A stretch of DNA of 64,000 nt from Escherichia coli (GCF_013315695.1 NZ_CP054353.1), one strand, 5' to 3'. Shown: positions 4,937 through 35,387, counted from the first letter of the stretch. Numbers and translations: made by a program. The notes: generated from the letters alone by a model not told the origin.

Positions 4937-4950
4937 GTTCGTATACGAAC
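4937..4950. promoter_or_regulatory. Perfect 14-bp palindrome gttcgtatacgaac, candidate operator
   Basis: Exact inverted repeat 18 bp upstream of the UbiX-like ATG, in the divergent intergenic region with the MarR gene. Confidence 0.4.
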
Positions 4951-4967
4951 AATTAAGAGAGTAAGCA

Positions 4968-6988: not shown

Positions 6989-6998
6989 GGAGAACAAG

Positions 6999-7235: not shown

Positions 7236-7236
7236 A

Positions 7237-7268
7237 TAAAAGGTCCGATGCCCATCGGACCTTTTTAT
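7237..7268. terminator. Bidirectional intrinsic terminator between the decarboxylase operon and ygbN
   Basis: aaataaaa-ggtccgatgcccatcggacc-ttttt: GC stem flanked by an A-run and a T-run between convergent genes. Confidence 0.7.
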
Positions 7269-7273
7269 TAAGG

Positions 7274-8638: not shown

Positions 8639-8726
8639 GGGAAACCCTGTCTGAAAGTTATAGTTAACCTACCCCATCCGTAGATGGGGGGATGTATGGG
8701 TACGTTGTAATTAGGGATTTAACGAA

Positions 8727-9503: not shown

Positions 9504-9507
9504 TGCA

Positions 9508-12310: not shown

Positions 12311-12475
12311 CTGCTCTCCTTGTTAATTTAAGTGATATTTTGTTTGATATTGTGAATATAAGCGCTGGAAGATAACGATATGGTGAGCTGATTCACAAAA
12401 ATTAACATTGTGTGTTATTTTATGTGAACTAAGCGTTAGTTGCGCCGCGCACGTTTCGCAGGCAAATAGCGTAGA

Positions 12476-13273: not shown

Positions 13274-13323
13274 TGGCCTGCAATAACACCGGGTTACTCA
13301 TGCTTCACAGAAGAAGCATGAGA

Positions 13324-13980
13324 CTACTTTATTTTATAAAATGACAGCCGCCCGCTTTTCGGCGATCCGGTATCAATATAAATCTGGTTAGCGAACGTCT
13401 GAGTGTTATCAAACATCATATGACCAAATATAAAGAAGTCGGCACCGTTTATTTTTTGTAATTCGCTATTAAGTGATTTCTGCACACGATCAACAGGCCA
13501 GAGTAATTCGCTCTCCGCTATTTCTTTGCCAAACTGATACTCCTTCCCCGGATAATCTGCATGTGCGATGACATATTTTATGTTGTCGTTAGTGATTTCA
13601 ATAATATGTGGAAGGTGATGAAATTTCAGCAACAGATCTATTGCCGCTTGTTGCTCTGAATCATTTAAATCGAAAAACCAGTCACCACCGCTGGCAAGCC
13701 ACATATTTCCATCGCCAGTTTCGAATGCATCCAACGCCATCGCTTCGTGGTTGCCTTTAACCGACGTAAACCAGGGCTGGTTTAACAGGCGTAGCACGTT
13801 AAGACTCTCCGGCCCACGATCAATGTTGTCGCCGACAGAAATAAGTAAGTCTTTTTCGGGGCAAAAAGAGCGTTGATGTAAGCGGGATTGTAATAATTGA
13901 TAGTCACCATGAATATCACCAACGGCCCATATATGGCGATAGTGATGGGCATTGATTTTTTGATAGCGTGTAGATGGCAT
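13324..13980 (-). CDS. pphB: serine/threonine protein phosphatase 2 (PPP family)
   Basis: 218 aa; metallophosphatase motifs GDIHGD and GNHE. Confidence 0.9.
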   Translation of the reverse strand: MPSTRYQKINAHHYRHIWAVGDIHGDYQLLQSRLHQRSFCPEKDLLISVGDNIDRGPESLNVLRLLNQPWFTSVKGNHEAMALDAFETGDGNMWLASGGDWFFDLNDSEQQAAIDLLLKFHHLPHIIEITNDNIKYVIAHADYPGKEYQFGKEIAESELLWPVDRVQKSLNSELQKINGADFFIFGHMMFDNTQTFANQIYIDTGSPKSGRLSFYKIK

Positions 13981-14085
13981 GGTTTTACCCTGTAAAATAA
14001 GATTTCCTATTATACAGGGTATTTTTATTTGATTCGTCAGTTGTCGTTAATATTCCCGATAGCAAAAGACTATCGGGAATTGTTA

Positions 14086-16647: not shown

Positions 16648-16894
16648 GGGGTTATGTCCGGTTCCCTGATATTAAATGGGGTGTGATGGTTTTTATTTTC
16701 GTTGTTATCACATAAGGCGCACATGATACCGGAGTTAATCATTTCAGGGGAAGAAGCGAACGGCGAGTTCTTGATGGTGATTCCGGGAAAGATGCTGTTT
16801 TGCAGCTTTTGCGTGATGCTTATGAAGCAAGTACGCAAAATTGCGTCGGTTGAATAAACCTCCTCCTTCAGAGCCATAGTCCCCTTTCAAATTA

Positions 16895-16917
16895 AGTTGT
16901 AATATAAATACACCTTA
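16895..16917. promoter_or_regulatory. Putative NsrR operator upstream of ygbA
   Basis: aagttgtaatataaatacacctt resembles the 11-1-11 NsrR inverted-repeat consensus; sits about 17 bp upstream of the ygbA ATG. Confidence 0.4.
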
Positions 16918-16933
16918 AGAGTATGGAGGCAGC

Positions 16934-17278
16934 ATGTCCGGCAAGCGTATCTCTCGTGAAAAACTGACGATTAAAAAAATGATCGATCTTTATCAAGCGA
17001 AATGCCCGCAGGCGTCAGCAGAGCCGGAGCATTACGAGGCGTTGTTTGCTTACGCGCAAAAGCGGCTGGATAAATGTGTGTTCGGCGAAGAGAAACCAGC
17101 CTGTAAGCAGTGTCCGGTGCACTGTTACCAGCCAGCAAAGCGTGAAGAGATGAAACAGATTATGCGTTGGGCCGGGCCGCGAATGCTGTGGCGTCATCCG
17201 ATCTTAACCGTGCGTCATCTCATCGATGACAAGCGTCCGGTGCCGGAGTTGCCAGAAAAATATCGTCCAAAGAAATAA
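16934..17278 (+). CDS. ygbA: conserved small Cys-rich protein YgbA
   Basis: 114 aa; ggagg RBS 6 nt upstream; position between mutS and fhlA. Confidence 0.8.
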   Translation: MSGKRISREKLTIKKMIDLYQAKCPQASAEPEHYEALFAYAQKRLDKCVFGEEKPACKQCPVHCYQPAKREEMKQIMRWAGPRMLWRHPILTVRHLIDDKRPVPELPEKYRPKK

Positions 17279-17282
17279 ATCT

Positions 17283-17305
17283 GCCGGAGAGCCATACTCT
17301 CCGGC
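17283..17305. terminator. Hairpin terminator between ygbA and the Mop gene
   Basis: gccggagag-ccata-ctctccggc (9-bp stem); a U-rich tract follows on the minus-strand transcript. Confidence 0.6.
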
Positions 17306-17316
17306 AAATAAGGCGT

Positions 17317-17745
17317 TTACGCTTTGGTGGCAATCAGGATGGCTGATGCTTTGATCAATGCAATAACGCGCGAGCCAGTGGTGAGTTTCATTTCATCCTG
17401 ACTTTCATTTGTTACCACTGCCACAATTTCAAAACCCGCATCCGTTTTGATATGGACAGTGGCGTTCACTGCGCCTTCGGTGATTGTCGACACGCTGCCA
17501 GCAAACTGGTTGCGAGCAGAGAATTTCAGTCCACAGTCTTCCGTTGCCAGTGTTACCCACGGGGCTTTAATCAGGGCAATCGCTTCTTTCCCTTTTGCCA
17601 GACCAAGAGCCTGCTGGCTGCTGTGTGTAACAATTGCCACCAGCTTTGCACCACCTGCCAGCGTCAGTTCTACTTCATCATTCACAGCGCCCATTGCTAC
17701 TGCGCTAACTGTTCCGGTTAATTGATTTCTTGCTGAAACTGCCAT
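17317..17745 (-). CDS. di-Mop (tandem TOBE) molybdate/molybdenum-pterin-binding protein
   Basis: 142 aa from the ATG at 17745, which has a perfect aaaggagg RBS 4 nt upstream; two ~70-aa halves each starting SARNQ(L/F)xG(T/S)VS; begins 44 bp after the fhlA stop. Confidence 0.75.
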   Translation of the reverse strand: MAVSARNQLTGTVSAVAMGAVNDEVELTLAGGAKLVAIVTHSSQQALGLAKGKEAIALIKAPWVTLATEDCGLKFSARNQFAGSVSTITEGAVNATVHIKTDAGFEIVAVVTNESQDEMKLTTGSRVIALIKASAILIATKA

Positions 17746-17789
17746 ACTGCCTCCTTTCATTGAATGTTGATCGAGTATAACCACATCTG

Positions 17790-19868
17790 TTAAATCAATG
17801 CCGATTTATCAATTCCCAGTCGCTTCATCCGTGACAGCAGAGTCGTGCGTTTCAGCCCCAGACGTTGCGCAGCGCCTTTAGGCCCGGCAACCACGCCGTT
17901 TGTTTCTTTCAGCACGCGAACAATCAACTGATATTCATCTTCGCCCTCCTGGGCGACAACCGTTGCGGCAGGCGGCGTTTCAGGTTCTGGTAAAGCAATA
18001 TCTGGCAATGACAGCTGCAGCACGTTGCCGCGTGTTAGCAATACCGCGCGCTCGATGACGTTTTCCAGCTCACGCACGTTGCCCGGCCATTCCATGTTGC
18101 TCAGGATGCGCAGCGTCTCGGCAGGAATGCTGTCGATATTGCGCCCCAGACGACGGGCAATTTTGAAGGTAAAGGCTTTCGCCAGCAGCGGAATATCTTC
18201 CGGACGCTCGCGTAGTGGCGGCAGGTGGATCGGGAATACGTTCAGGCGGTAATAGAGATCACTACGGAACTCTCGGTCGGCGACCATTTTTTTCAGATCG
18301 CGGTTAGTCGCGGCAATTAAACGTACGTCCGTCTGAATGATTTTGTTGCTGCCGAGGCGTTCAAACTCCTGTTCCTGTAATACACGCAGCAACTTCGGCT
18401 GTAACTCCAGCGGCATATCGCCCACTTCGTCGAGGAACAGGGAGCTTTTATCCGCCAGTTCAAAACGACCAATGCGCTGGGCGCTGGCACCGGTAAAAGC
18501 CCCACGCTCATGACCAAACAGATCGCTCTCCAGCAATCCGGCAGGCATCGCCGCGCAGTTCATTTTTACCATGCGGCGATTATTACGCCCACTGAGATTA
18601 TGGATAGCACGGGCAATCAGCTCTTTACCCGTGCCAGTTTCACCGAGGATCAGCACGGTACTGTCACTTTGCGCCACCATTTCAACTTGTTTAAGCACGC
18701 TGTACATGGCTTCGCTGCGGCCAATAATCTCGCCAAATTCACTATCAACATTGTTGAGCTGCTCGGTCAGGGCGAGGTTTTCATCAACCAGCCGTTCTTT
18801 CAGACGATGGATTTCCTGATAGGCGAGGGCGTTATCGACAGCGATTGCCACACGTTCGGCAATCTGGCGCAGTAAATTCAGATTGGTAGTGGTAAACACT
18901 TTCTCTTCGCATTGCGCCAGTTTCAGCACGCCCAGCATGGTGTCGCCAGACATCAGCGGTAACAGGCACAAGGTTTGAATCTGGTTGCCCCAGGTGTCGA
19001 ACAACATGCGTTCATAGGGGGCTAAATCGTCCCGCTCGTGGAGATTAATCAACAGCATCTCTTTACTTTTGAAGACGCGTTCGGTGAGGGTTCCGGCTTC
19101 ATCGACTTCGCTCTGTTCGTGGGCGGGATGCTGTTTATCAAGATAGTGAGTGGAGTAGATGTTGAGTTTGTTTTTACGGTGGCTGCGTAAGACGATGCTG
19201 ATATCGTCAATGTCGAAGTAGTAATGGATTTCTTTGGCGACTTCGCTGACCAGTTCGTCCATATCCAGGCGGGAAAGCACCGCGTTGGTAATGGCAACCA
19301 GGATGCGGAAGTTATCGCGCTCCCGGCATAACAACTCATAGTCGACATTGTTAACGACGCGGCTCTGGATTTGTTCGGTGACGACCGAAACGATCTGCGT
19401 AAATGTTTGCAGACGATTGAACTCTTTTTCGCTCCAGGGGCGATCGTCATAACGAATAAATTCACAGCCACCAAAAATATGCCCTTCCGCCGCCAGTGGC
19501 ATCAGGCAATAGTGACCAAATTTGGGGTATAGTCCACCTGCGGCCAGCTGCGGCCAGGTTTCACAAAATTCTTCGTAACTGCAATGCAGCGTATCAGGGC
19601 GCGACAAAATGCTGCGTACCGGACCGTGTGCCAGAACAGTTTCGTCTTCATATTTAATGGGGGTGTCTTTTTCACGCGACGCGTAATAAGACGCACGTTG
19701 AGTCTGCGCTTGCCACAACACAATAGCCGCGTTGTCGGCGAGCGCAGAACGCTTTACCAGTTGCGAAAGAGCCTCACACAGCGAGGCCAGATCGGGCTGC
19801 TGCAATAGTGTCCGAGTGATGTCGAACAACCCTTGTTGTCCGAGATCACTCATCGGTGTATATGACAT
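17790..19868 (-). CDS. fhlA: formate hydrogenlyase transcriptional activator (sigma-54 enhancer-binding protein)
   Basis: 692 aa starting MSYTPMSDLGQQGLF; GAF domains, AAA+ core with GETGTGKE and GAFTGA, C-terminal HTH. Confidence 0.95.
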   Translation of the reverse strand: MSYTPMSDLGQQGLFDITRTLLQQPDLASLCEALSQLVKRSALADNAAIVLWQAQTQRASYYASREKDTPIKYEDETVLAHGPVRSILSRPDTLHCSYEEFCETWPQLAAGGLYPKFGHYCLMPLAAEGHIFGGCEFIRYDDRPWSEKEFNRLQTFTQIVSVVTEQIQSRVVNNVDYELLCRERDNFRILVAITNAVLSRLDMDELVSEVAKEIHYYFDIDDISIVLRSHRKNKLNIYSTHYLDKQHPAHEQSEVDEAGTLTERVFKSKEMLLINLHERDDLAPYERMLFDTWGNQIQTLCLLPLMSGDTMLGVLKLAQCEEKVFTTTNLNLLRQIAERVAIAVDNALAYQEIHRLKERLVDENLALTEQLNNVDSEFGEIIGRSEAMYSVLKQVEMVAQSDSTVLILGETGTGKELIARAIHNLSGRNNRRMVKMNCAAMPAGLLESDLFGHERGAFTGASAQRIGRFELADKSSLFLDEVGDMPLELQPKLLRVLQEQEFERLGSNKIIQTDVRLIAATNRDLKKMVADREFRSDLYYRLNVFPIHLPPLRERPEDIPLLAKAFTFKIARRLGRNIDSIPAETLRILSNMEWPGNVRELENVIERAVLLTRGNVLQLSLPDIALPEPETPPAATVVAQEGEDEYQLIVRVLKETNGVVAGPKGAAQRLGLKRTTLLSRMKRLGIDKSALI

Positions 19869-19941
19869 TTTGTTCTTCCAGGAAAGCACCGCAAAGCGGT
19901 GCAAAAGGTCATTGACTAACTATAGGAGATTTAGAATTTTA

Positions 19942-20952
19942 TTAGCATATACGCGGAAGCGGTTCGGCGTGTGGTAAATCGAGGGTTCGTTTCACGCCAT
20001 ACAGACCGGCAAGACGAACACCTTTACGTTCCACCACTTCACCAATCAGCGCCGCGTCTTTTCCCAATGGATGGGAATGTAACGCCGCCAGCACTTGCTC
20101 TGCTGCGTTGCGTTCAACGGCGATCACCAGTTTGCCTTCGTTGGCAAAATTAAGGGCGTCCAGTCCCAGCAGTTCGCAAACGCCGCGTACAGCAGGTTTA
20201 ACCGGCAGTGCCGCTTCTGAAATTTCAATACCACAACCGCAGGCTGCCGCGAACTCATGAACTACCGCGTTCACTCCACCACGGGTGGCATCACGCAGCG
20301 CTTTCACGCCGGGAATGTCACGCAGCGTCTGAATAACCGGCGTTAGTACCGCACAGTCGCTTACCAGTTCGCCATCCAGCCCCAGCTGCTCACGCAGGTT
20401 AAGGATAGTCGCCCCGTGGTCGCCGAGAGTTCCACTCACCAGCAGAACATCGCCTGCGGTTAGCGTTTGTGCGCCCCAGTGAATATTCGCCGGAATTGCG
20501 CCCATGCCAGCGGTGTTGATAAACAGTTTATCTGCCGCGCCGCGCTGCACCACTTTAGTATCGCCAGTAACGATGGCAATGCCTGCCGCGCGGGCGGTTT
20601 CTGCCATGCTGGTCACTACGGCTTTCAGTGTCTCCATCGGCAATCCTTCTTCGAGGATAAAGCCACAGGAGAGATAGCGCGGAATAGCGCCACTGACCGC
20701 AACGTCATTCGCGGTGCCGCAAATCGCCAGCTTGCCGATATTACCGCCAGGGAAGAACAGCGGGTCAATAACGTAACTGTCGGTGGAGAACGCCAGACGG
20801 TCGCCTTCCGCCACCAGTTGTGCCAGATCAAGGCGCGCCTGGTCTTCCTGTTCTGCCAGCCACGGATTGGAAAAAGCTTCCATAAACAGGCTGTTGATTA
20901 ATTGCTGCATCGCCTGGCCGCCGCTGCCGTGGGCGAGTTGGATATTATTCAC
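19942..20952 (-). CDS. hypE: hydrogenase maturation protein HypE
   Basis: 336 aa; AIR-synthase-like; C-terminal PRIC. Confidence 0.9.
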   Translation of the reverse strand: MNNIQLAHGSGGQAMQQLINSLFMEAFSNPWLAEQEDQARLDLAQLVAEGDRLAFSTDSYVIDPLFFPGGNIGKLAICGTANDVAVSGAIPRYLSCGFILEEGLPMETLKAVVTSMAETARAAGIAIVTGDTKVVQRGAADKLFINTAGMGAIPANIHWGAQTLTAGDVLLVSGTLGDHGATILNLREQLGLDGELVSDCAVLTPVIQTLRDIPGVKALRDATRGGVNAVVHEFAAACGCGIEISEAALPVKPAVRGVCELLGLDALNFANEGKLVIAVERNAAEQVLAALHSHPLGKDAALIGEVVERKGVRLAGLYGVKRTLDLPHAEPLPRIC

Positions 20953-22070
20953 GCTTCACTCTCCTGCTGACGATACTGATACCACGCGGCGCATGCTCCT
21001 TCGGAGGAAACCATCAGCGCGCCAAACGCGGTTTGAGGATTACAGGTGTTACCAAACAGCGGGCATTGATGCGGCTTACATTTGCCCGTTAATACTTCGC
21101 CACAACGTGCGCGCGGGTCATCGCAGACCTGCTGCGGTGCCGGGCGGAAATGCGCTTCGGCATCGAATCGTTGATAATCCGGCGTCAGGTGTACACCAGA
21201 AGATTCAATCACGCCTAAGCCGCGCCATTCGCTGTCGCCGTTGACACAGAACACATCGGCAATCGCCTGTTGCGCCAGCAGGTTACCGGCATCCGGCACC
21301 ACCCGACGATACTGATTCTCTACCTTGCTGTGGGCTGCTATTTTCTGCTCCACCAGCATGACCACGCCTTGCAGTAGATCAAGCGGTTCGAAACCAGCCA
21401 CCACCAGCGGACGATGAAAATCGCTGGCGATAAAATTATAGGCGTCGGTGCCGATAACCATACTGACGTGGCCGGGCGCGAGGAACGCGTCGATACCGTT
21501 ATCCGGCTGTTCCAGCAAACTGCGCAGTGTTGGGATGAGCGTAATGTGCTGGCAGAAGAAGTAAAAATTCTGCACATCGCGGGCTTTTGCCTGTTGCAGA
21601 GTGATGGCGGTGGTCGGCATGGTGGTTTCAAAACCTAAGCCGAAGAACACCACTTTGCGGGTTGGATTCTCCTGCGCCAGTTTTAACGCATCCATTGGCG
21701 AGTAAACGATGCGCACATCGGCACCGCGCGCTTTTGCCTGTAACAACGACCCCTGTTTCCCTGGTACGCGCATGGCGTCGCCAAAGGTACAGAAGATGAC
21801 TTCCGGATGGCTGGCAATCTCCACGCAGGTGTCGATTCTTCCCATCGGCAGTACACATACCGGGCAACCCGGACCGTGGATAAACTCAACGTTCTCCGGC
21901 AGCAACTGGTCGAGGCCGAATTTAAAAATGGCGTGGGTATGACCGCCACACACTTCCATAATCCGCAGAGGGCGTTCGGCGGTGTAAGAGAGATGTGAAG
22001 CACGTTCGCGCAGATGCTCAATTAACTGCATCACCTGTTCCGGCGCGCGATATTCATCAACAAAACGCAT
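20949..22070 (-). CDS. hypD: hydrogenase maturation protein HypD
   Basis: 373 aa; conserved CGxH and CPVC motifs. Confidence 0.9.
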   Translation of the reverse strand: MRFVDEYRAPEQVMQLIEHLRERASHLSYTAERPLRIMEVCGGHTHAIFKFGLDQLLPENVEFIHGPGCPVCVLPMGRIDTCVEIASHPEVIFCTFGDAMRVPGKQGSLLQAKARGADVRIVYSPMDALKLAQENPTRKVVFFGLGFETTMPTTAITLQQAKARDVQNFYFFCQHITLIPTLRSLLEQPDNGIDAFLAPGHVSMVIGTDAYNFIASDFHRPLVVAGFEPLDLLQGVVMLVEQKIAAHSKVENQYRRVVPDAGNLLAQQAIADVFCVNGDSEWRGLGVIESSGVHLTPDYQRFDAEAHFRPAPQQVCDDPRARCGEVLTGKCKPHQCPLFGNTCNPQTAFGALMVSSEGACAAWYQYRQQESEA

Positions 22071-22342
22071 TATTTTTCCTCGCCATACAACAGCGCACCG
22101 ACATCCGGCTCAACGTCAAACATGTTTTGTAAGGCGTCGAGAGTGTCGCGCGCTTCGGCTTCATTAATTACGCTCATGGCAAAGCCAACGTGAACCAGTA
22201 CCCACTGGCCCACGCGTGGCTGACCGTTTTCATCGCAGCTGCCGACTAACGTTAAATCGACATCGCGCTGAATGCCGCAGACGTCGACTTTCGCCTGGTT
22301 GCCGTCAATGGTGCGGATCTGGCCGGGAACGCCTATGCACAT
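22070..22342 (-). CDS. hypC: hydrogenase maturation chaperone HypC
   Basis: 90 aa starting MCIGVPGQI (start at the internal ATG of the track ORF). Confidence 0.9.
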
Positions 22343-23205
22343 CGCTGTGTCTCCAGCCAGTTCAGCCACTGCTCCATCCCTTCGCCGCTGGTGGCGGAAA
22401 TAAGGATGATTTCAATTTCTGGATTGACTTCACGGGCGCAGGCGATGCACTTCTCAACGTCGAAATTGAGATACGGCAGCAAGTCAACTTTGTTGAGCAG
22501 CATCAGCGAGGCGGCGGCAAACATATGCGGATATTTCAGCGGTTTGTCTTCACCTTCGGTAACGGAAAGCACCGCCACTTTGTGTTTTTCACCGAGATCG
22601 AAGCTGGCCGGGCAAACGAGGTTACCAACGTTTTCGATAAACAGAATACCGTTATCGGCCAGTGGCAGGCGCGGTGCGGCGTCGGCAATCATCTGAGCGT
22701 CGAGATGGCAGCCTTTACCGGTATTCACCTGAATCGCTGGTGTGCCGGTAGCACGAATGCGTGCGGCATCGTTCACGGTTTGCTGATCGCCTTCAATAAC
22801 CGCGCACGGAACGCTGTCTTTCAGGCGCATTAAGGTTTCCGTCAGCAGGGTGGTTTTACCGGAACCAGGGCTGGAAACTAGGTTGAGCACCAGTTGCTTG
22901 CGGGCAGCAAAGCGCGCGCGGTTGCGTTCAGCCAGACGGTTATTTTTGTCCAGCACGTCAATTTCGACTTCCAGCATCCGACGCTGGCTCATGCCCGGCG
23001 CGTGAGTGCCCGCTTCGCCATGACCGTAATGCAGGTCGCCTTCTTCAGTCTGGCTGGGGGTAAATTCAGGCGCTTTAATGCCGGTGATTTTCATCTTCGG
23101 GCGTGCCGCCGGGGCAAATGGCGCGCTACGAAACGCGGAATGAGGGTTATGTTCATCACCCTCAATATAGAGGTTGCCTTCACCGCAACCGCATGTTGTA
23201 CACAT
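22333..23205 (-). CDS. hypB: hydrogenase nickel incorporation GTPase HypB
   Basis: 290 aa; N-terminal CTTCGC metal site; GSGKTT P-loop. Confidence 0.9.
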
Positions 23206-23208
23206 CGC

Positions 23209-23559
23209 TCACTCCTGGTCTATTTCTATCCGCCGAATCTGTAAACCGTCGTCTGCCACAATCTGTAGCATGTCACCATGACACTGTGGACAGCGGCGGA
23301 CGCGCTGGGTCAGTAGCGTCACATACTGTTGGCATGTTTCACACCAGCATTCGGCCTCTTGTTCTTCGAGGTGCAGTTTACAACCTTCCGCCACGCTGCC
23401 GCGGCAAACCAGATCAAAACAAAAGGCAAGAGAGCTGGTTTCGACACAAGAAAATGCGCCAATTTTGAGCCAGACCCCAGTTACGCGTTTTGCGCCGTGT
23501 TTTGCGGCCTGCTGTTCGATCAATTCCAGTGCCCGTTGGCAGAGGGTTATTTCGTGCAT
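23209..23559 (-). CDS. hypA: hydrogenase nickel insertion protein HypA
   Basis: 116 aa starting MHEITLCQ; CxxC...CxxC zinc site. Confidence 0.9.
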   Translation of the reverse strand: MHEITLCQRALELIEQQAAKHGAKRVTGVWLKIGAFSCVETSSLAFCFDLVCRGSVAEGCKLHLEEQEAECWCETCQQYVTLLTQRVRRCPQCHGDMLQIVADDGLQIRRIEIDQE

Positions 23560-23718
23560 ATCGCCTCCCATTAACTATTGCCAGCTACAAGCAATAATTG
23601 TGCCAGTGTTGATTATCCCTGCGGTGAATAATGTCGATGATGTCGAAATGACACGTCGACACGGCGACGAAATTCATCTTTAGCTTAGAAATTGCTTTAA
23701 TAACAATGAATTAAAAGT

Positions 23719-23735
23719 TGGCACAGAAAATGCTT
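23719..23735 (+). promoter_or_regulatory. sigma-54 (-24/-12) promoter of the hyc operon
   Basis: TGGCACagaaaaTGCtt with GG-N10-GC spacing, about 36 bp upstream of the hycA ATG; the hyc operon is FhlA/sigma-54 dependent. Confidence 0.6.
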
Positions 23736-23770
23736 AAAGCTGGCATCTCTGTTAAACGGGTAACCTGACA

Positions 23771-24232
23771 ATGACTATTTGGGAAATAAGCGAGAAAGCC
23801 GATTACATCGCACAGCGGCATCGTCGCCTACAGGACCAGTGGCACATCTACTGCAATTCGCTGGTTCAGGGGATCACGTTATCGAAAGCGCGCCTGCATC
23901 ACGCCATGAGCTGCGCGCCGGACAAAGAACTCTGTTTCGTCCTTTTTGAACATTTTCGCATTTACGTCACCCTGGCGGATGGCTTTAACAGCCACACCAT
24001 CGAGTATTACGTCGAAACAAAAGATGGCGAAGACAAACAGCGGATTGCGCAGGCGCAACTGAGCATTGACGGCATGATTGATGGCAAGGTCAACATCCGC
24101 GATCGCGAACAGGTTCTGGAACACTATCTCGAAAAAATCGCTGGCGTTTACGACAGCTTATATACCGCCATTGAAAACAATGTGCCGGTGAATTTAAGCC
24201 AACTGGTAAAGGGACAAAGCCCGGCAGCATGA
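23771..24232 (+). CDS. hycA: formate hydrogenlyase regulatory protein HycA
   Basis: 153 aa; first gene of the hyc operon, divergent from hypA. Confidence 0.9.
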   Translation: MTIWEISEKADYIAQRHRRLQDQWHIYCNSLVQGITLSKARLHHAMSCAPDKELCFVLFEHFRIYVTLADGFNSHTIEYYVETKDGEDKQRIAQAQLSIDGMIDGKVNIRDREQVLEHYLEKIAGVYDSLYTAIENNVPVNLSQLVKGQSPAA

Positions 24233-24356
24233 GCTGAGGCTTTGCCCGTTTTGCAGGCGTTACGCCTGTTTGGGGATGGGCGTGTCGATGAGTGTCGAAA
24301 ATGACATTTCATCGGCATGTTTTCGTCAAAAATGACAATCACCTGAGGAATGCCTG

Positions 24357-24968
24357 GTGAATCGTTTTGTAATTGCTGACTCCACGCTCTGTATCGGCTG
24401 CCACACTTGTGAGGCTGCCTGTTCAGAGACGCATCGCCAGCACGGCCTGCAATCAATGCCGCGCCTGAGAGTGATGCTAAATGAAAAAGAATCTGCGCCG
24501 CAGCTCTGCCACCACTGTGAAGATGCACCCTGCGCAACGGTCTGCCCGGTTAACGCCATCACTCGTGTTGATGGTGCTGTGCAGTTGAATGAAAGTCTGT
24601 GCGTAAGCTGCAAACTGTGTGGCATCGCCTGCCCGTTTGGCGCAATTGAATTTTCCGGCAGCCGTCCGCTGGATATTCCGGCAAACGCCAATACCCCGAA
24701 AGCGCCACCGGCACCGCCTGCTCCGGCGTGTGTCAGCACATTGCTTGACTGGGTGCCAGGTATTCGCGCGATCGCCGTCAAATGTGACCTTTGTAGCTTT
24801 GATGAACAAGGTCCGGCCTGCGTGCGGATGTGCCCGACTAAAGCCCTGCATCTGGTGGATAACACCGATATCGCCCGCGTCAGCAAACGTAAGCGTGAGC
24901 TGACTTTTAACACGGACTTTGGCGATCTCACCTTGTTTCAGCAGGCTCAAAGTGGAGAGGCTAAATGA
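24357..24968 (+). CDS. hycB: formate hydrogenlyase 4Fe-4S ferredoxin subunit HycB
   Basis: 203 aa; multiple CxxCxxCxxxCP motifs. Confidence 0.9.
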   Translation: MNRFVIADSTLCIGCHTCEAACSETHRQHGLQSMPRLRVMLNEKESAPQLCHHCEDAPCATVCPVNAITRVDGAVQLNESLCVSCKLCGIACPFGAIEFSGSRPLDIPANANTPKAPPAPPAPACVSTLLDWVPGIRAIAVKCDLCSFDEQGPACVRMCPTKALHLVDNTDIARVSKRKRELTFNTDFGDLTLFQQAQSGEAK

Positions 24969-26791
24969 GCGCAATTTCCCTGATCAATAGCGGCGTGGCG
25001 TGGTTTGTCGCCGTCGCTGTTCTGGCATTTCTCTTTTCTTTTCAAAAAGCGCTAAGTGGCTGGATAGCCGGAATTGGCGGCGCGGTGGGTAGCCTGTATA
25101 CGGCAGCCGCGGGCTTCACTGTGCTGACTGGCGCGGTTGGCGTGAGCGGTGCGCTGTCGCTGGTAAGCTACGATGTGCAAATCTCTCCGCTTAACGCGAT
25201 TTGGCTGATTACGCTCGGTCTGTGCGGTCTGTTTATCAGCCTCTACAACATTGACTGGCATCGCCACGCGCAGGTGAAGTGCAACGGCTTGCAGATCAAT
25301 ATGTTGATGGCTGCCGCCGTCTGTGCCGTCATCGCCAGCAACCTCGGCATGTTCGTGGTAATGGCCGAAATCATGGCCCTGTGTGCGGTGTTCCTCACCA
25401 GCAACAGCAAAGAGGGCAAACTGTGGTTTGCGCTGGGGCGTCTTGGCACTCTGCTGCTGGCGATTGCTTGCTGGCTGCTGTGGCAGCGTTACGGCACGCT
25501 GGATCTGCGCCTGCTGGATATGCGTATGCAACAGCTGCCGCTCGGTTCCGATATCTGGCTGCTCGGTGTGATTGGCTTTGGTCTGCTGGCAGGGATTATT
25601 CCGCTGCACGGCTGGGTGCCGCAGGCACATGCTAACGCCTCTGCGCCAGCTGCCGCGTTGTTTTCTACGGTAGTCATGAAAATTGGCCTGCTGGGCATTT
25701 TAACCCTGTCACTGCTGGGCGGTAACGCACCGCTGTGGTGGGGGATCGCGCTGCTGGTGCTCGGTATGATCACCGCGTTCGTCGGTGGTCTGTATGCGCT
25801 GATGGAGCATAACATCCAGCGCCTGCTGGCTTACCACACCCTGGAAAATATCGGCATTATCCTGCTGGGGCTGGGCGCTGGCGTAACGGGTATCGCGCTC
25901 GAACAACCGGCGCTGATTGCCCTTGGTCTGGTTGGTGGTCTGTACCATCTGCTTAACCATAGCCTGTTCAAAAGCGTGCTTTTCCTCGGGGCGGGGAGCG
26001 TCTGGTTCCGTACCGGTCATCGCGATATCGAAAAACTCGGTGGTATTGGCAAGAAAATGCCGGTTATCTCCATCGCCATGTTAGTCGGGCTGATGGCAAT
26101 GGCTGCGCTGCCGCCGCTGAACGGTTTTGCCGGGGAATGGGTTATCTATCAATCCTTCTTCAAACTGAGCAATAGTGGCGCGTTTGTTGCCCGTCTTCTC
26201 GGGCCGCTGCTCGCCGTGGGGCTGGCAATTACCGGTGCGCTGGCGGTGATGTGTATGGCGAAAGTCTATGGCGTTACTTTCCTCGGCGCGCCGCGTACCA
26301 AAGAAGCCGAAAACGCCACCTGTGCGCCGCTCCTGATGAGCGTAAGCGTAGTGGCACTGGCGATTTGCTGCGTAATTGGCGGTGTTGCTGCGCCGTGGCT
26401 ACTGCCGATGCTCTCTGCTGCTGTACCTCTGCCGCTGGAGCCTGCTAACACCACCGTTTCTCAACCAATGATCACGTTGCTGCTGATTGCCTGCCCGCTG
26501 CTGCCATTCATCATTATGGCGATTTGCAAAGGCGATCGTTTGCCGTCGCGTTCCCGCGGCGCGGCCTGGGTGTGCGGCTACGACCATGAAAAATCAATGG
26601 TGATTACCGCTCACGGTTTTGCCATGCCGGTGAAACAGGCGTTTGCGCCGGTGCTGAAACTGCGCAAATGGCTGAATCCGGTGTCGCTGGTACCGGGCTG
26701 GCAGTGCGAGGGGAGTGCGTTGCTGTTCCGCCGGATGGCGCTGGTTGAACTGGCGGTGCTGGTGGTGATTATTGTTTCACGAGGAGCCTGA
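24965..26791 (+). CDS. hycC: formate hydrogenlyase membrane subunit HycC (NuoL-like)
   Basis: 608 aa polytopic membrane protein. Confidence 0.9.
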   Translation: MSAISLINSGVAWFVAVAVLAFLFSFQKALSGWIAGIGGAVGSLYTAAAGFTVLTGAVGVSGALSLVSYDVQISPLNAIWLITLGLCGLFISLYNIDWHRHAQVKCNGLQINMLMAAAVCAVIASNLGMFVVMAEIMALCAVFLTSNSKEGKLWFALGRLGTLLLAIACWLLWQRYGTLDLRLLDMRMQQLPLGSDIWLLGVIGFGLLAGIIPLHGWVPQAHANASAPAAALFSTVVMKIGLLGILTLSLLGGNAPLWWGIALLVLGMITAFVGGLYALMEHNIQRLLAYHTLENIGIILLGLGAGVTGIALEQPALIALGLVGGLYHLLNHSLFKSVLFLGAGSVWFRTGHRDIEKLGGIGKKMPVISIAMLVGLMAMAALPPLNGFAGEWVIYQSFFKLSNSGAFVARLLGPLLAVGLAITGALAVMCMAKVYGVTFLGAPRTKEAENATCAPLLMSVSVVALAICCVIGGVAAPWLLPMLSAAVPLPLEPANTTVSQPMITLLLIACPLLPFIIMAICKGDRLPSRSRGAAWVCGYDHEKSMVITAHGFAMPVKQAFAPVLKLRKWLNPVSLVPGWQCEGSALLFRRMALVELAVLVVIIVSRGA

Positions 26792-26793
26792 GA

Positions 26794-27717
26794 ATGAGTG
26801 TTTTATATCCGTTAATTCAGGCGCTGGTGCTATTTGCCGTTGCGCCGCTGCTCTCCGGTATTACCCGCGTAGCGCGCGCCCGTCTGCATAACCGTCGTGG
26901 GCCGGGTGTGTTGCAGGAGTATCGCGACATTATCAAACTGCTGGGGCGTCAGAGCGTTGGCCCGGATGCCTCCGGCTGGGTGTTCCGCCTGACGCCGTAT
27001 GTGATGGTGGGCGTCATGCTGACTATCGCCACTGCGCTGCCGGTGGTGACCGTCGGTTCTCCGCTGCCGCAACTGGGCGATTTGATCACCTTACTGTATC
27101 TCTTCGCCATCGCGCGTTTCTTCTTTGCCATTTCTGGTCTGGATACCGGTAGCCCGTTTACCGCTATCGGCGCGAGCCGTGAAGCGATGCTTGGCGTGTT
27201 GGTTGAACCGATGCTGCTGCTTGGTCTGTGGGTCGCCGCACAGGTTGCCGGTTCCACCAACATCAGCAACATCACCGACACCGTTTATCACTGGCCACTG
27301 AGCCAGAGCATCCCGCTGGTGCTGGCGCTTTGTGCCTGTGCGTTCGCCACCTTTATCGAAATGGGCAAACTGCCGTTCGACCTGGCGGAAGCCGAGCAGG
27401 AGTTGCAGGAAGGTCCGCTCTCCGAATACAGCGGTAGCGGCTTTGGCGTCATGAAATGGGGTATCAGCCTGAAACAGCTGGTGGTGTTGCAGATGTTCGT
27501 CGGGGTGTTTATTCCGTGGGGACAAATGGAAACCTTCACCGCTGGTGGACTGCTGCTGGCGCTGGTGATTGCCATCATCAAACTGGTGGTTGGCGTCCTG
27601 GTTATCGCGCTGTTCGAAAACAGCATGGCCCGTCTGCGTCTTGATATTACTCCGCGCATTACCTGGGCTGGGTTTGGCTTTGCATTTTTAGCGTTCGTCT
27701 CCTTGCTGGCGGCGTGA
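26794..27717 (+). CDS. hycD: formate hydrogenlyase membrane subunit HycD (NuoH-like)
   Basis: 307 aa membrane protein. Confidence 0.9.
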   Translation: MSVLYPLIQALVLFAVAPLLSGITRVARARLHNRRGPGVLQEYRDIIKLLGRQSVGPDASGWVFRLTPYVMVGVMLTIATALPVVTVGSPLPQLGDLITLLYLFAIARFFFAISGLDTGSPFTAIGASREAMLGVLVEPMLLLGLWVAAQVAGSTNISNITDTVYHWPLSQSIPLVLALCACAFATFIEMGKLPFDLAEAEQELQEGPLSEYSGSGFGVMKWGISLKQLVVLQMFVGVFIPWGQMETFTAGGLLLALVIAIIKLVVGVLVIALFENSMARLRLDITPRITWAGFGFAFLAFVSLLAA

Positions 27718-27734
27718 TTAAAGAGAGTTTGAGC

Positions 27735-29444
27735 ATGTCTGAAGAAAAATTAGGTCAACATTATCTCGCCGCGCTGAATGAGGCATTTCCGGGCGTCGTG
27801 CTGGACCACGCGTGGCAGACCAAAGATCAGCTGACTGTCACCGTAAAGGTGAACTATCTGCCGGAAGTGGTGGAGTTTCTCTACTACAAGCAGGGGGGCT
27901 GGCTGTCGGTGCTGTTTGGTAACGACGAACGCAAACTGAATGGTCATTACGCCGTTTACTACGTGCTGTCGATGGAGAAGGGCACCAAATGCTGGATAAC
28001 CGTGCGCGTTGAAGTTGACGCCAACAAACCGGAATATCCGTCCGTGACACCGCGCGTTCCGGCGGCGGTGTGGGGCGAGCGCGAAGTGCGCGATATGTAC
28101 GGTTTGATTCCGGTTGGTCTGCCAGATGAACGCCGTCTGGTGCTGCCGGATGACTGGCCGGATGAACTTTATCCGCTGCGTAAAGACAGCATGGATTATC
28201 GTCAGCGTCCGGCACCGACTACCGATGCTGAAACCTACGAGTTCATCAACGAACTGGGCGACAAGAAAAACAATGTCGTGCCGATTGGTCCGCTGCACGT
28301 CACTTCTGACGAACCGGGTCACTTCCGTCTGTTTGTCGATGGCGAAAACATTATCGACGCCGACTACCGCCTGTTCTACGTTCATCGCGGCATGGAAAAA
28401 CTGGCGGAAACCCGCATGGGTTATAACGAAGTGACCTTCCTCTCTGACCGTGTGTGCGGGATCTGCGGCTTTGCTCACAGCACCGCCTATACCACGTCGG
28501 TGGAAAACGCGATGGGTATTCAGGTGCCAGAACGTGCGCAGATGATCCGCGCCATTCTGCTGGAGGTAGAACGCCTGCACTCGCATCTGCTCAATCTCGG
28601 CCTGGCCTGTCACTTTACCGGCTTCGACTCCGGCTTTATGCAGTTCTTCCGCGTGCGTGAAACCTCCATGAAAATGGCAGAGGTCCTTACCGGTGCACGT
28701 AAAACCTACGGCCTGAACCTGATCGGCGGGATTCGTCGCGATCTGCTGAAAGACGACATGATCCAGACCCGCCAGCTGGCACAACAGATGCGTCGTGAAG
28801 TGCAGGAGCTGGTGGATGTGCTGCTGAGCACACCGAACATGGAACAACGCACCGTCGGTATTGGTCGTCTGGACCCGGAAATCGCTCGCGACTTCAGTAA
28901 CGTTGGCCCGATGGTCCGTGCCAGCGGTCACGCCCGTGATACCCGTGCCGATCACCCGTTTGTTGGTTATGGCCTGCTGCCAATGGAAGTCCACAGCGAG
29001 CAGGGCTGCGACGTTATTTCCCGTCTGAAAGTGCGTATCAACGAAGTCTATACCGCGCTGAATATGATCGATTACGGTCTGGATAACCTGCCGGGCGGCC
29101 CGCTGATGGTGGAAGGCTTTACCTACATTCCGCACCGTTTCGCGCTGGGCTTTGCCGAAGCGCCGCGCGGCGACGATATCCACTGGAGCATGACCGGCGA
29201 CAACCAGAAGCTGTACCGCTGGCGCTGCCGTGCGGCGACCTACGCAAACTGGCCGACCCTGCGCTACATGCTGCGCGGCAACACCGTTTCCGATGCGCCG
29301 TTGATTATCGGTAGCCTGGACCCTTGCTACTCCTGTACCGACCGCATGACCGTGGTCGATGTACGTAAGAAGAAGAGCAAAGTGGTGCCGTACAAAGAAC
29401 TCGAGCGTTACAGCATTGAGCGTAAAAACTCGCCGCTGAAATAA
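27735..29444 (+). CDS. hycE: hydrogenase 3 large [NiFe] subunit HycE
   Basis: 569 aa starting MSEEKLGQHYL; RxCGxCxxxH and C-terminal DPCxxCxxR Ni-binding motifs. Confidence 0.9.
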   Translation: MSEEKLGQHYLAALNEAFPGVVLDHAWQTKDQLTVTVKVNYLPEVVEFLYYKQGGWLSVLFGNDERKLNGHYAVYYVLSMEKGTKCWITVRVEVDANKPEYPSVTPRVPAAVWGEREVRDMYGLIPVGLPDERRLVLPDDWPDELYPLRKDSMDYRQRPAPTTDAETYEFINELGDKKNNVVPIGPLHVTSDEPGHFRLFVDGENIIDADYRLFYVHRGMEKLAETRMGYNEVTFLSDRVCGICGFAHSTAYTTSVENAMGIQVPERAQMIRAILLEVERLHSHLLNLGLACHFTGFDSGFMQFFRVRETSMKMAEVLTGARKTYGLNLIGGIRRDLLKDDMIQTRQLAQQMRREVQELVDVLLSTPNMEQRTVGIGRLDPEIARDFSNVGPMVRASGHARDTRADHPFVGYGLLPMEVHSEQGCDVISRLKVRINEVYTALNMIDYGLDNLPGGPLMVEGFTYIPHRFALGFAEAPRGDDIHWSMTGDNQKLYRWRCRAATYANWPTLRYMLRGNTVSDAPLIIGSLDPCYSCTDRMTVVDVRKKKSKVVPYKELERYSIERKNSPLK

Positions 29445-29453
29445 GGAATCGCC

Positions 29454-29996
29454 ATGTTTACCTTTATCAAAAAAGTCATTAAAACCGGCACGGCGACCTC
29501 GTCTTACCCGCTGGAGCCGATTGCGGTTGATAAAAACTTCCGTGGTAAGCCAGAGCAGAACCCGCAGCAGTGCATCGGCTGTGCAGCCTGCGTCAATGCC
29601 TGCCCGTCAAACGCCTTAACGGTTGAAACTGACCTCGCCACAGGTGAGCTGGCATGGCAGTTCAATCTCGGTCGCTGCATCTTCTGTGGACGTTGCGAAG
29701 AAGTCTGCCCGACGGCGGCGATCAAACTGTCGCAAGAGTACGAACTGGCGGTGTGGAAGAAAGAAGACTTCCTGCAACAGTCTCGCTTCGCGCTGTGCAA
29801 CTGCCGCGTCTGCAATCGTCCTTTCGCCGTCCAGAAAGAGATCGACTACGCCATTGCGCTGCTTAAGCACAATGGTGACAGCCGCGCGGAAAACCACCGC
29901 GAAAGCTTTGAGACTTGCCCGGAATGTAAGCGCCAGAAATGCCTGGTGCCGTCCGACCGTATTGAACTGACTCGCCATATGAAAGAGGCCATCTGA
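29454..29996 (+). CDS. hycF: formate hydrogenlyase iron-sulfur subunit HycF
   Basis: 180 aa; two CxxCxxCxxxCP motifs. Confidence 0.9.
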
Positions 29997-30763
29997 TGAG
30001 CAATTTATTAGGCCCCCGTGACGCCAACGGCATTCCGGTCCCGATGACGGTGGATGAATCCATCGCCAGTATGAAGGCGTCGTTACTGAAAAAAATCAAA
30101 CGTTCTGCCTACGTTTACCGCGTGGACTGCGGCGGCTGCAACGGCTGTGAAATCGAAATTTTCGCCACGCTTTCGCCGCTGTTCGATGCAGAACGCTTCG
30201 GCATTAAAGTCGTCCCGTCACCGCGTCATGCGGATATTTTACTGTTTACCGGCGCGGTCACCCGTGCAATGCGATCCCCTGCGCTGCGTGCGTGGCAGTC
30301 CGCGCCGGACCCGAAAATCTGTATCTCCTACGGTGCCTGCGGTAACAGCGGCGGCATTTTCCACGATCTCTACTGCGTGTGGGGCGGTACGGATAAAATC
30401 GTCCCGGTCGATGTTTACATTCCTGGTTGCCCACCAACGCCTGCCGCCACGCTGTATGGCTTTGCGATGGCGCTCGGCCTGCTGGAGCAGAAAATCCACG
30501 CTCGTGGGCCGGGTGAACTGGATGAACAACCGGCTGAGATTCTGCATGGCGATATGGTGCAGCCGCTGCGTGTAAAAGTAGATCGCGAAGCACGCCGCCT
30601 GGCGGGTTATCGTTACGGTCGCCAGATTGCCGATGATTTCCTGACGCAGTTAGGGCAGGGTGAAGAGCAGGTTGCACGCTGGCTGGAAGCGGAAAACGAT
30701 CCGCGTCTGAACGAGATTGTCAGCCATCTGAATCATGTTGTTGAAGAGGCGCGTATCCGATGA
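29996..30763 (+). CDS. hycG: hydrogenase 3 small subunit HycG
   Basis: 255 aa; NuoB-like cysteine motifs. Confidence 0.9.
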
Positions 30764-31170
30764 GTGAAAAGGTGGTGTTCAGTCAACTGAGCCGTAAATT
30801 TATTGATGAGAACGATGCCACGCCCGCCGAGGCGCAGCAGGTGGTCTATTACAGCCTGGCGATTGGTCACCACCTTGGGGTTATCGATTGCCTGGAAGCG
30901 GCGCTCACCTGCCCGTGGGATGAATATCTGGCATGGATTGCCACTCTGGAGGCGGGCAGCGAAGCCCGCCGCAAAATGGAAGGCGTGCCGAAATATGGTG
31001 AGATCGTCATCGACATTAACCATGTGCCGATGCTGGCCAACGCATTCGATAAAGCCCGGGCAGCGCAAACTTCGCAGCAGAAGGAATGGAGTACAATGCT
31101 GTTAAGTATGCTGCATGATATTCATCAGGAAAACGCCATCTATTTGATGGTGAGGAGACTGCGTGACTGA
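30760..31170 (+). CDS. hycH: formate hydrogenlyase maturation protein HycH
   Basis: 136 aa; conserved operon position. Confidence 0.85.
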
Positions 31171-31630
31171 CGTTTTACTTTGTGTTGGCAATAGCATGAT
31201 GGGCGATGATGGCGCAGGCCCGCTGCTGGCGGAAAAGTGCGCCGCCGCGCCGAAAGGTAACTGGGTGGTGATTGACGGCGGTAGCGCACCGGAAAACGAT
31301 ATCGTCGCCATCCGTGAACTGCGCCCGACACGACTGCTGATTGTCGACGCCACGGATATGGGGCTAAACCCCGGCGAGATCCGCATCATCGACCCGGATG
31401 ACATCGCCGAGATGTTTATGATGACTACCCATAACATGCCGCTGAACTACCTTATCGACCAGTTGAAAGAAGACATTGGCGAAGTGATTTTCCTCGGCAT
31501 CCAGCCGGATATCGTCGGCTTTTACTACCCGATGACCCAGCCGATTAAAGACGCGGTAGAAACCGTTTATCAACGGCTGGAAGGCTGGGAAGGGAATGGC
31601 GGCTTCGCGCAGTTAGCGGTGGAAGAATAA
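31163..31630 (+). CDS. hycI: hydrogenase 3 maturation endopeptidase HycI
   Basis: 155 aa starting [20 protein letters not shown]. Confidence 0.9.
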   Translation: MTDVLLCVGNSMMGDDGAGPLLAEKCAAAPKGNWVVIDGGSAPENDIVAIRELRPTRLLIVDATDMGLNPGEIRIIDPDDIAEMFMMTTHNMPLNYLIDQLKEDIGEVIFLGIQPDIVGFYYPMTQPIKDAVETVYQRLEGWEGNGGFAQLAVEE

Positions 31631-31674
31631 TTCTTCATTAGGGAATTCAGGGAATTGAACATCAAAACAGGGAT

Positions 31675-32428
31675 GTGCGCTTTTTATTGAGCTTAGTGCT
31701 GCCTGCACAGGCCACCAGCTTTACCGAATATCTGCCAATGAGTGACAGCGAATACGCGCAAAAGCGGGCGCTGAAACCTCTCTTAAACATGCCTTATGAT
31801 GCCGAGCAAACCTGGCATTTTAGAAAAGTGGGCGTTGCTGGCGTGACGCTTGAAAAGATGCCAAATGATGATAGTGAATGGCAATTGAACGGTAAAGATC
31901 GCGCCGGTAAATCCTGGTCTGTGCCTGTGGGGGGGGCTGCAAAATATGGCGGGTAATGCGCAACTTTACCGTGCCGATCTTGATCGTAACGGCATTCAGG
32001 ATCTGGTTATCTGGCGGGGTATTTCAGGAAATGGTCTGGCACCTAACGCGTTTTTGATTCTGATGACCTTTAATCAGCAAGGTCGCCCGTGTGTTTTTCA
32101 GTCCGATGGTTTTTATAGCGCAAGTGAAACTGGCATTGATGATTTGCTGGATTTACAAAGGAATGGTCACACGCAATTGCTGGATATGCAGTTTGATTCC
32201 GGTTACTGGATAACCAGTCTGTATCAGGTAAAAGACGCCAAATGGCAGCGTGTTCACGGCTGGTTTGGCAAGTTAAGCTATCCCGCGCTCACGCGTTTTA
32301 CTTATACCCCCAACCGTAAACTCGTCCTCAAACCCATCGCCGGGCGCGACCCGCAAACGGAAGATCTGGCACTGACGCAGAGTTGCTTGATAAAGGGGGA
32401 TGTTCTTGATGGGGTGAACCAGCTCTGA
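31675..32428 (+). pseudogene. Secreted-protein gene with DLxRNG repeats, split by a +1 frameshift in a G8 tract (or phase-variable)
   Basis: ORFs 31675..31956 and 31946..32428 overlap in adjacent frames; both frames are open across 31889..31956, which contains the G8 run 31929..31936; deleting one G fuses them into one ~248-aa ORF with a signal-peptide-like N-terminus. Confidence 0.5.
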
Positions 32429-32444
32429 TGCCAAACGCCAGATT

Positions 32445-32469
32445 GCCCGATGCGCTACGCTTATCGGGC
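32445..32469. repeat. REP-like palindromic unit
   Basis: gcccgatgcgctacgcttatcgggc, an imperfect palindrome of the REP type, between the split ORF and the ascB stop. Confidence 0.5.
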
Positions 32470-32496
32470 CTTCCTGGTTCGTGCGACGGTAGTTGC

Positions 32497-35387
<2,891 letters not shown>

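Follow-up and report, generated by a model that had tools for sequence, protein, structure and literature searches.

Genes at the two ends of the hydrogenase 3 locus and a decarboxylase module near rpoS in an Escherichia coli chromosome are probably ancestral genes lost from the K-12 lineage

Background

This report concerns a stretch of 64,000 nucleotides (nt) of the Escherichia coli chromosome (GCF_013315695.1 NZ_CP054353.1), here called the window, over the whole length of which all positions are counted. It holds the hyp-hyc-fhlA (hydrogenase 3, formate hydrogenlyase) locus, mutS and rpoS, and three segments absent from E. coli K-12, namely a gene for a Mop-type protein (mop) at the fhlA end of the hydrogenase locus, an open reading frame (ORF) split at a run of eight guanines (G8) at its hycI end, and a MarR-decarboxylase module at rpoS. 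A first reading made from the sequence alone (the sequence-only reading) took the three for strain-specific inserts, two of them bracketing the hydrogenase locus, and explained them by recombinational replacement around mutS rather than by mobile elements. Comparison with K-12, other E. coli and related genera instead suggests that all three are very probably ancestral chromosomal genes, kept here and lost in the K-12 lineage by small clean deletions.

The mutS-rpoS interval is reportedly a polymorphic hotspot in E. coli and Salmonella, a view ascribed to LeClerc 1999, Herbelin 2000, Culham & Wood 2000 and Denamur 2000. Its mosaic structure, the 2.9-kb decarboxylase segment and a 2.1-kb B2 segment have long been known and are summarised in PMC4209514, where Ewers 2014 also described c3292 as a "putative molybdenum-pterin-binding protein" and reported a fhlA-mutS amplicon of 1,673 bp in CFT073 vs 1,208 bp in MG1655. 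The fhlA/mutS junction was in turn described as a hotspot of gain and loss, and E. albertii, E. fergusonii and IAI39 were noted to carry one gene only, "modE", in the ygbA-fhlA gap (Lerminiaux 2020, PMC7232297).

Results

Layout of the window and comparison with K-12

The window is E. coli chromosome in reversed orientation relative to K-12, as judged from its ORF map and the MG1655 annotation. Its genes run surE-pcm-nlpD-rpoS, the MarR-decarboxylase module, ygbN-ygbI, pphB and mutS (14086-16647, minus strand), followed by ygbA (16934-17278, plus), mop (minus), fhlA-hypEDCBA (minus), hycABCDEFGHI (plus), the split ORF (plus) and ascB (32497-33921, minus). The core formate hydrogenlyase locus (17790-31630) comprises fhlA (17790-19868) and hypEDCBA on the minus strand and hycA-I (23771-31630) on the plus strand, transcribed divergently from 23572-23770, and matches K-12 at 97.3% identity along 13.9 kb. 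Its length from fhlA to hycI, 13.8 kb, bears out the roughly 14 kb of the sequence-only reading, which had also placed the Mop gene and the G8-split ORF correctly at the two ends.

The alignment to K-12 MG1655 (blastn) that the same reading had proposed as a check gave four collinear blocks of 96.7-99.0% identity with exactly three indels between them, each of which replaces a short K-12 intergenic stretch, as that reading had stated. They lie at rpoS/ygbN (window 4340-7234, 2,895 bp vs 8 bp in K-12), ygbA/fhlA (17308-17788, 481 bp vs 6 bp) and hycI/ascB (31652-32396, 745 bp vs 3 bp). All three sites are convergent gene pairs, in line with the convergent or terminator-containing junctions first described, and the end of the decarboxylase segment is 10.07 kb from the Mop segment, close to the 10 kb given.

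A Mop gene downstream of fhlA

The mop gene (17317-17745, minus strand) encodes a 142-amino-acid (aa) ModG-type di-Mop protein that has two Mop/TOBE domains in tandem and no further domain (Pfam TOBE twice, E=8.8e-35; TIGR00638 Mop twice, 142 bits against a cut-off of 55). Azotobacter vinelandii ModG (1H9J) aligned with it over its full length (E=5e-33, residues 1-140 on 4-143), and the C-terminal half of ModE (residues 124-261) aligned more weakly. The same tandem pair is thus found in A. vinelandii ModG (145 aa; PDB 1H9J/1H9K/1H9M) and in the E. coli ModE C-terminus. From these matches the product would be a ModG-like cytoplasmic protein that binds molybdate or tungstate. The modG gene of A. 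vinelandii sits in a molybdate transport locus; mop differs in that it follows fhlA in a hydrogenase maturation/regulation operon. In spite of the "modE" label in PMC7232297, mop does not encode ModE, because its product has no DNA-binding domain.

The start codon is preceded by a GGAGG ribosome-binding site and lies 44 nt past the fhlA stop codon, and neither a promoter-like nor a terminator-like site was seen in this gap. Directly past the mop stop codon is an intrinsic terminator hairpin (17279-17309, minus strand; 14-bp stem and T-run), shared with the convergent ygbA. Because of these four features, mop looks like the terminal gene of the hypABCDE-fhlA operon, with which it would be co-transcribed. 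The neighbouring ygbA has the short C-terminus allele (…YRPKK, stop) that goes with the Mop+ haplotype. Mop+ and Mop- haplotypes differ in the ygbA C-terminus (…PKK vs …PKKPHE or PRE before the stop) and in the terminator stem; both haplotypes were found in other Escherichia species too.

A conserved gene downstream of hycI, frameshifted in the window

The ORF 3' of hycI (31655-32428, plus strand) corresponds to a secreted protein that is conserved and about 250 aa long; its conserved start is the TTG at 31655, with an ATG at 31673 as an alternative. Two homopolymer runs interrupt it. At 31681-31685 there is a T5 run, which is common to the window and its closest relative AF3 and is T6 in all other alleles compared; it breaks the frame from the conserved start and removes the conserved signal-peptide start, which is why the RefSeq annotation of AF3 begins at a GTG, with a leader of 13 residues. 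The G8 run (31929-31936) is found in the window only, its closest relatives having G7 and older alleles GGGGGTG or GGGTATG at the site, and removal of one G restores an ORF of 250 codons. On this sequence the ORF in the window is a pseudogene with two frameshifts, unless the G8 run is a homopolymer error. The sequence-only reading had overlooked the T5 frameshift, as well as a GGGATGT repeat at the K-12 junction described below. A phase-variable homopolymer switch at G8 was considered and rejected; the G run occurs in one sub-lineage only, in which the window alone deviates from G7.

Other E. coli have the gene intact (247-253 aa), annotated as encoding a hypothetical protein; these versions begin with MNIRTGMCAFLLSLVLPAQA followed by TSF, which reads as a typical Sec signal peptide. 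No family match to the product was found in Pfam or NCBIfam. Orthologues lie directly 3' of hycI in E. whittamii, E. albertii, Escherichia sp. MOD1-EC7003 and E69, and in Salmonella enterica 27 nt past hycI (269 aa, 71% identity); the family is confined to Escherichia, Salmonella and Klebsiella spallanzanii. With dN/dS values of 0.13-0.28 and frames intact, without internal stops, in seven taxa, this is a true gene, subject to purifying selection, and its position suggests that it is probably the last, co-transcribed gene of the hyc operon. Two allele classes exist within E. coli, separated by a dS of 0.24-0.27, more than separates the B1-type allele from other Escherichia species (0.16-0.19); identity to the window is 98.9% for the O104:H4 allele and 88-89% for those of O26/O121. 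We take O104:H4, O26:H11 and O121:H19 all to be phylogroup B1, so that both classes occur among these strains.

The product has two conserved DxDxNGxxD-like motifs (DLDRNGIQDL, DDLLDLQGNGH) and is predicted to be all-beta, with the integrin alpha-V propeller as its best fold match, features reminiscent of FG-GAP/integrin-alpha beta-propellers. That match falls short of significance (E=0.048, TM 0.26) and comes from a weak model (pLDDT 59), and at 250 aa the product is too short for a full set of seven blades. A Foldseek search of PDB with this model returned nothing significant, so that the similarity is limited to the FG-GAP-like motifs.

Other features of the hycI/ascB junction vary among strains. 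A palindrome read from the sequence, GCCCGATGCGCTACGCTTATCGGGC (32437-32470), lies between the ORF and the ascB stop codon and is also found in K-12; presumably it is a REP element. In B1 strains a higB-higA toxin-antitoxin pair directly follows the ORF and is flanked by a CTGA duplication (2266-3279 of the cq9 and O26:H11 loci). Strain AVS0467 (2504-3663 of its locus) has only codons 1-61 of the ORF, an orphan HigA-like helix-turn-helix gene and a gene for a 145-aa hypothetical protein, and lacks the entire ascGFB. Apparent independent partial deletions of mop and the ORF in HS-02 (NZ_CP172818.1) were discarded as evidence because of long homopolymer noise at both its fhlA-ygbA and hycI-ascB junctions.

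The decarboxylase module near rpoS

The segment absent from K-12 at 4340-7234 (2,895 bp) has the terminator of rpoS (4309-4338) on one side and that of ygbN (7233-7270) on the other. It carries a MarR regulator (4414-4821, minus strand) and, on the plus strand, vdcB/ecdB (4968-5561; 311.5 bits vs a cut-off of 290 in NCBIfam), vdcC/ecdC (5561-6988; 790.8 vs 650) and vdcD/ecdD (6999-7235; 121.2 vs 30). These are the three subunits of the VdcBCD/EcdBCD/BsdBCD (UbiX/UbiD-type) non-oxidative hydroxyarylic acid decarboxylases, with the adjacent divergent MarR gene of those systems, and the module is ordinary except for its rpoS-mutS location and its absence from K-12. Salmonella has MarR-vdcBCD in the ygbI-rpoS gap, inverted with respect to rpoS in comparison with E. 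coli (locus 4395-7237), and K. quasipneumoniae has it between rpoS and mutS (locus 4390-7237). The latter also has a hok-family toxin gene after the module, before mutS.

Deletion in K-12 and absence of mobile elements

The hycI/ascB junction bears on polarity. A 7-bp repeat, GGGATGT, occurs in the window at 31670-31676 and again at 32397-32403 (both plus strand), the right copy opening a tract of 32 nt (32397-32428) with the last codons and the stop of the ORF. K-12 and O157:H7 retain these final 32 nt as a remnant, and their junction, ...CAGGACAGGGATGTTCTTGATG..., equals the window minus the 727 bp between the repeats, joined at the left copy. Because K-12 has both the remnant and a junction between two 7-bp repeats, it is the deleted state at this site.

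The sequence-only reading had seen neither mobility genes nor flanking direct repeats, and this held. The ORFs of the three segments are MarR, VdcBCD, Mop and the secreted-protein pseudogene, and no transposase, integrase, recombinase or remnant of one was detected among them. No direct or inverted repeats of at least 10 nt were found at any of their junctions, where there are only terminator hairpins; the only junction repeat is GGGATGT, which the K-12 deletion accounts for. No tRNA gene adjoins the segments, the nearest being at 56.2-56.8 kb, and no Rfam family was found in or beside them. Their GC contents (0.486, 0.490 and 0.557) are near-normal against 0.532 for the whole window, and every match to them in a survey set of 5,426 complete E. 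coli genomes was single-copy and chromosomal. Absence at the site in related species, a mark of genomic islands, was not found; the segments occur at these sites in other Escherichia, Salmonella, Klebsiella, Citrobacter and others. With the same sites occupied in these outgroups and an ORF remnant in K-12, the description of the segments as inserts had to be given up.

Distribution in E. coli and related genera

Nor are the segments strain-specific. Within the survey set, 1,889 of 5,426 genomes (35%) carry mop, 1,461 (27%) the full-length ORF segment, with its first 184 bp only in about 840 more, and 2,380 (44%) the decarboxylase segment. Combinations were counted approximately, from concatenated queries, by inclusion-exclusion and as places vs records, and eight of the eight presence/absence states are populated. 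About 1,595 genomes have none of the segments (the K-12 state) and about 129 have all three (the state of the window), with mop only in about 804, the ORF only in about 405 and the decarboxylase only in about 846; mop and the ORF occur together without the third in about 239, mop and the decarboxylase in about 718, and the ORF and the decarboxylase in about 692. The pairwise overlaps are thus about 368 (mop/ORF), 847 (mop/decarboxylase) and 821 (ORF/decarboxylase). If the decarboxylase is ignored, about 368 genomes carry both mop and the ORF, about 1,522 mop without the full ORF and about 1,097 the full ORF without mop. As a description of this clonally biased collection, the two bracket genes segregate nearly independently, unlinked to each other or to the decarboxylase, and a meaning as a unit for the bracketing of the hyp-hyc-fhlA cluster is therefore not supported.

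Reference strains illustrate the states. K-12 lacks the decarboxylase and mop and has the ORF deleted; O157:H7 has the decarboxylase, no mop and the ORF deleted with the K-12 junction; O26:H11 has the decarboxylase, no mop and an intact ORF followed by the inserted higBA; and AVS0467, with a CFT073-like rpoS region, has a flavodoxin/MBL segment at the decarboxylase site, mop present, the ORF truncated at codon 61 and no asc operon. We take these four to belong to phylogroups A, E, B1 and B2, respectively. In O26:H11 strain FWSEC0001, fhlA (21230-23298 of its locus) is annotated as a frameshifted pseudogene, and the RefSeq label "flhA" used throughout is a naming slip.

Beyond E. coli, hyc neighbourhoods were taken from 80 species-representative genomes, of which 69 loci had a complete fhlA 3' end and at least 700 bp downstream. 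In 20 of these 69, mop lies on the fhlA strand 38-104 nt downstream, including E. albertii, Escherichia sp. MOD1-EC7003, several Citrobacter, Kluyvera, Raoultella, K. spallanzanii, K. indica, Pluralibacter, Kosakonia and Enterobacter soli. Identity of Mop correlates with that of FhlA across species loci (r=0.91), as expected under vertical co-divergence.

A recombination mosaic around mutS

Sliding-window divergence of the window from K-12, O157, O26 and AVS0467 showed a succession of blocks. The surE-rpoS part diverges by about 1%. The decarboxylase segment is 3.4-5.1% divergent from O157/O26 between flanks of about 1%, and its allele is rare, being at least 99% identical in only 7 genomes of the survey set. 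The ygbN-ygbI block (7235-13270) is 0.4-1.0% from K-12/O26, and between ygbI and pphB (about 13,270-13,320) there is a sharp step from 0-3 to 12-25 mismatches per 250 bp relative to K-12 and O26, which marks the left breakpoint; against K-12, divergence rises here from about 0.5% to 5-6%. The pphB-mutS block that follows (13270-17000, right end approximate) is 4-6.6% from all four genomes. From about 17,000 to 18,250, across the ygbA 3' end, mop and the fhlA 3' end, the window is nearly identical to the B2 genome and 3-4% from K-12/O157/O26, and beyond about 18,500 divergence is low.

An allele at least 99% identical over pphB-mutS is present in only 5 of 5,426 genomes, almost all others being about 94-95% identical; that of MS 21-1 is 100% identical to the window. 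None of the loci of other Escherichia species was near the rare mutS allele (5.9-11% divergent). The MutS protein is 99% identical to that of K-12, and from this pattern of divergence pphB-mutS is taken to be functional sequence imported by recombination from a divergent lineage. The hyp-hyc-fhlA cluster is itself a mosaic (0.8-4.5% divergence per kb). Its hypE/hypD part (20000-22000) is 3.3-4.6% from K-12, O157, O26 and the B2 genome between flanks of 0.8-2.5%, and is probably, on this contrast, a second imported patch within the hyp operon. The 6-kb ygbN-ygbI block is flanked exactly by two rare divergent blocks, the decarboxylase and pphB-mutS, and O157:H7 lacks it, vdcD adjoining pphB directly; ygbN-ygbI may have entered an O157-like arrangement later, as a K-12/B1-like import.

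Discussion

The evidence points, with high but not full probability, to ancestral genes that were retained in the window and deleted from the K-12 lineage. Under this reading, the divergent hyc and hyp-fhlA operons would place dispensable terminal genes at the two outer ends of the locus, and the apparent bracketing arises because each gene ends one of two divergent operons. Deletions of such terminal genes would have no polar effect and would keep the convergent terminators, and MarR-vdcBCD would long have resided between rpoS and mutS. The presence and absence states would be old haplotypes, with 3-4% flanking divergence and common to several Escherichia species, and homologous recombination would shuffle them among E. 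coli lineages; here it would also have swapped pphB-mutS. The recombinational replacement around mutS that the sequence-only reading proposed thus stands as far as the mosaic and the absence of mobile elements are concerned, and falls on polarity, K-12 being the deleted state.

Several results weigh against this reading. At the Mop and decarboxylase junctions of K-12, microhomology or a remnant was sought and none was found. Of the species loci, 49 of 69 have no mop, and Citrobacter and most other genera among them lack the ORF; with mop in 20 of 69 loci and the ORF missing from most genera, the ancestral reading requires many independent losses. The segments may have been gained early in part of the family, or transferred between genera via homologous flanks, and, the Mop block being B2-like here, the lineage of the window may have regained that segment by recombination and not have kept it throughout. 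The independence of the segments, drawn from a clonally biased survey set, is descriptive and no statistical test.

A related explanation turns the direction around and has K-12-like empty junctions filled by allelic replacement from E. coli or other Escherichia donors via the flanking core genes. The near-identity of the ygbA-mop-fhlA' block to the B2 genome, beside the rare foreign mutS, would fit such a gain, as would the rare decarboxylase allele flanked by K-12-like DNA. Outgroup Escherichia, Salmonella and Klebsiella, however, have the segments, a deletion scar is left in K-12, and nothing points to the sites ever having been empty in the lineage of the window; even if regained, the segments would not be novel. 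We therefore think gain by allelic replacement improbable. Movement of the 14-kb cluster and both flanking genes as one cassette, with the brackets as the ends of the unit, would account for their position exactly at the cluster ends, but the two co-occur in only about 368 genomes, against the far larger numbers with either alone, divergence within the cluster is itself mosaic, and the cluster is core in every genome examined; this is very hard to credit. That a mobile element or a site-specific recombinase inserted the segments and its traces then decayed is largely refuted and has next to no probability left. Because higBA was inserted after the ORF in B1 strains, the hycI/ascB junction is able to take small selfish modules, and the short CTGA duplication and the REP-like element there point the same way; against this, no transposase or integrase, inverted repeats, target duplication or tRNA accompanies the segments in the window, segment GC is 0.49-0.56 vs 0.53, synteny of the genes extends to distant genera, and their divergence follows that of the neighbouring core genes.

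A narrower question is whether G8 is a sequencing or assembly error for a true G7, in which case the ORF would be as intact as in the closest relatives. These relatives all have G7, no 100% match to the segment was found, and the best, AF3 (99.9%), is one base shorter; homopolymer errors are common, as the noisy HS-02 assembly illustrates. On the other side, slippage from G7 to G8 is plausible as a real mutation, and further decay of the ORF is expected because the T5 frameshift had already cost the lineage its conserved start. An error at G8 is possible, if rather doubtful, in our view.

The pattern as a whole falls within the hotspot already described, and the polymorphisms are largely published. 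Region and alternative states are the same, the 2.9-kb segment being the "o454-yclC" pattern IV and the Mop gene being c3292, which explains the amplicon lengths of 1,673 and 1,208 bp; mutS alleles incongruent with strain phylogeny are part of the described pattern, and the fhlA-mutS gap in Salmonella houses SPI-1. What differs is the hycI/ascB indel, which lies about 14 kb beyond mutS, outside the described region, and whose allele classes and K-12 deleted state are not in the published description; the pphB-mutS allele of the window, found in 5/5,426 genomes, is also rarer than the published patterns. What novelty is left is modest and consists of two operon-terminal genes by formate hydrogenlyase that are absent from K-12, together with the unusually divergent mutS allele. 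The locus offers a worked example of operon-terminal genes lost by microhomology deletion in haplotypes that recombination would later have shuffled. K-12 would be derived and gene-poor at three junctions around mutS and the hydrogenase 3 locus, and it would therefore be wrong to treat differences from it here as acquisitions.

A modest lead is offered by the molbindin gene downstream of fhlA and the secreted-protein gene downstream of hycI, both absent from K-12 and conserved beside formate hydrogenlyase operons across genera. A literature search found no functional study on Mop after fhlA or the secreted protein after hycI, and nothing on a gene after hycI. We raise, as a speculative idea that we consider unlikely, that the bracket genes are formate hydrogenlyase accessories overlooked owing to the deletion of both from K-12; one would be a molybdate buffer of the ModG kind, co-expressed with FhlA, and the other a tenth hyc gene for a conserved periplasmic protein. 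The buffer would then supply or sense molybdenum for the molybdenum-dependent formate dehydrogenase H, the tenth gene would be co-transcribed after hycI in Salmonella and many E. coli, and repeated loss of the bracket genes would amount to niche-dependent tuning of hydrogen metabolism.

Three further observations concern the window outside the segments. The ygbK/otnK gene has 420 codons in the window (10143-11405), O26:H11 and Salmonella, vs 388 codons in K-12 (26336-27502 of the K-12 locus), where a 91-bp gap lies ahead of ygbL; the K-12 gene appears to be a truncated allele. A five-gene tRNA array with four identical copies (56206-56792) and the small RNA MicA (59684-59755) are ordinary, K-12-like and unrelated to the segments.

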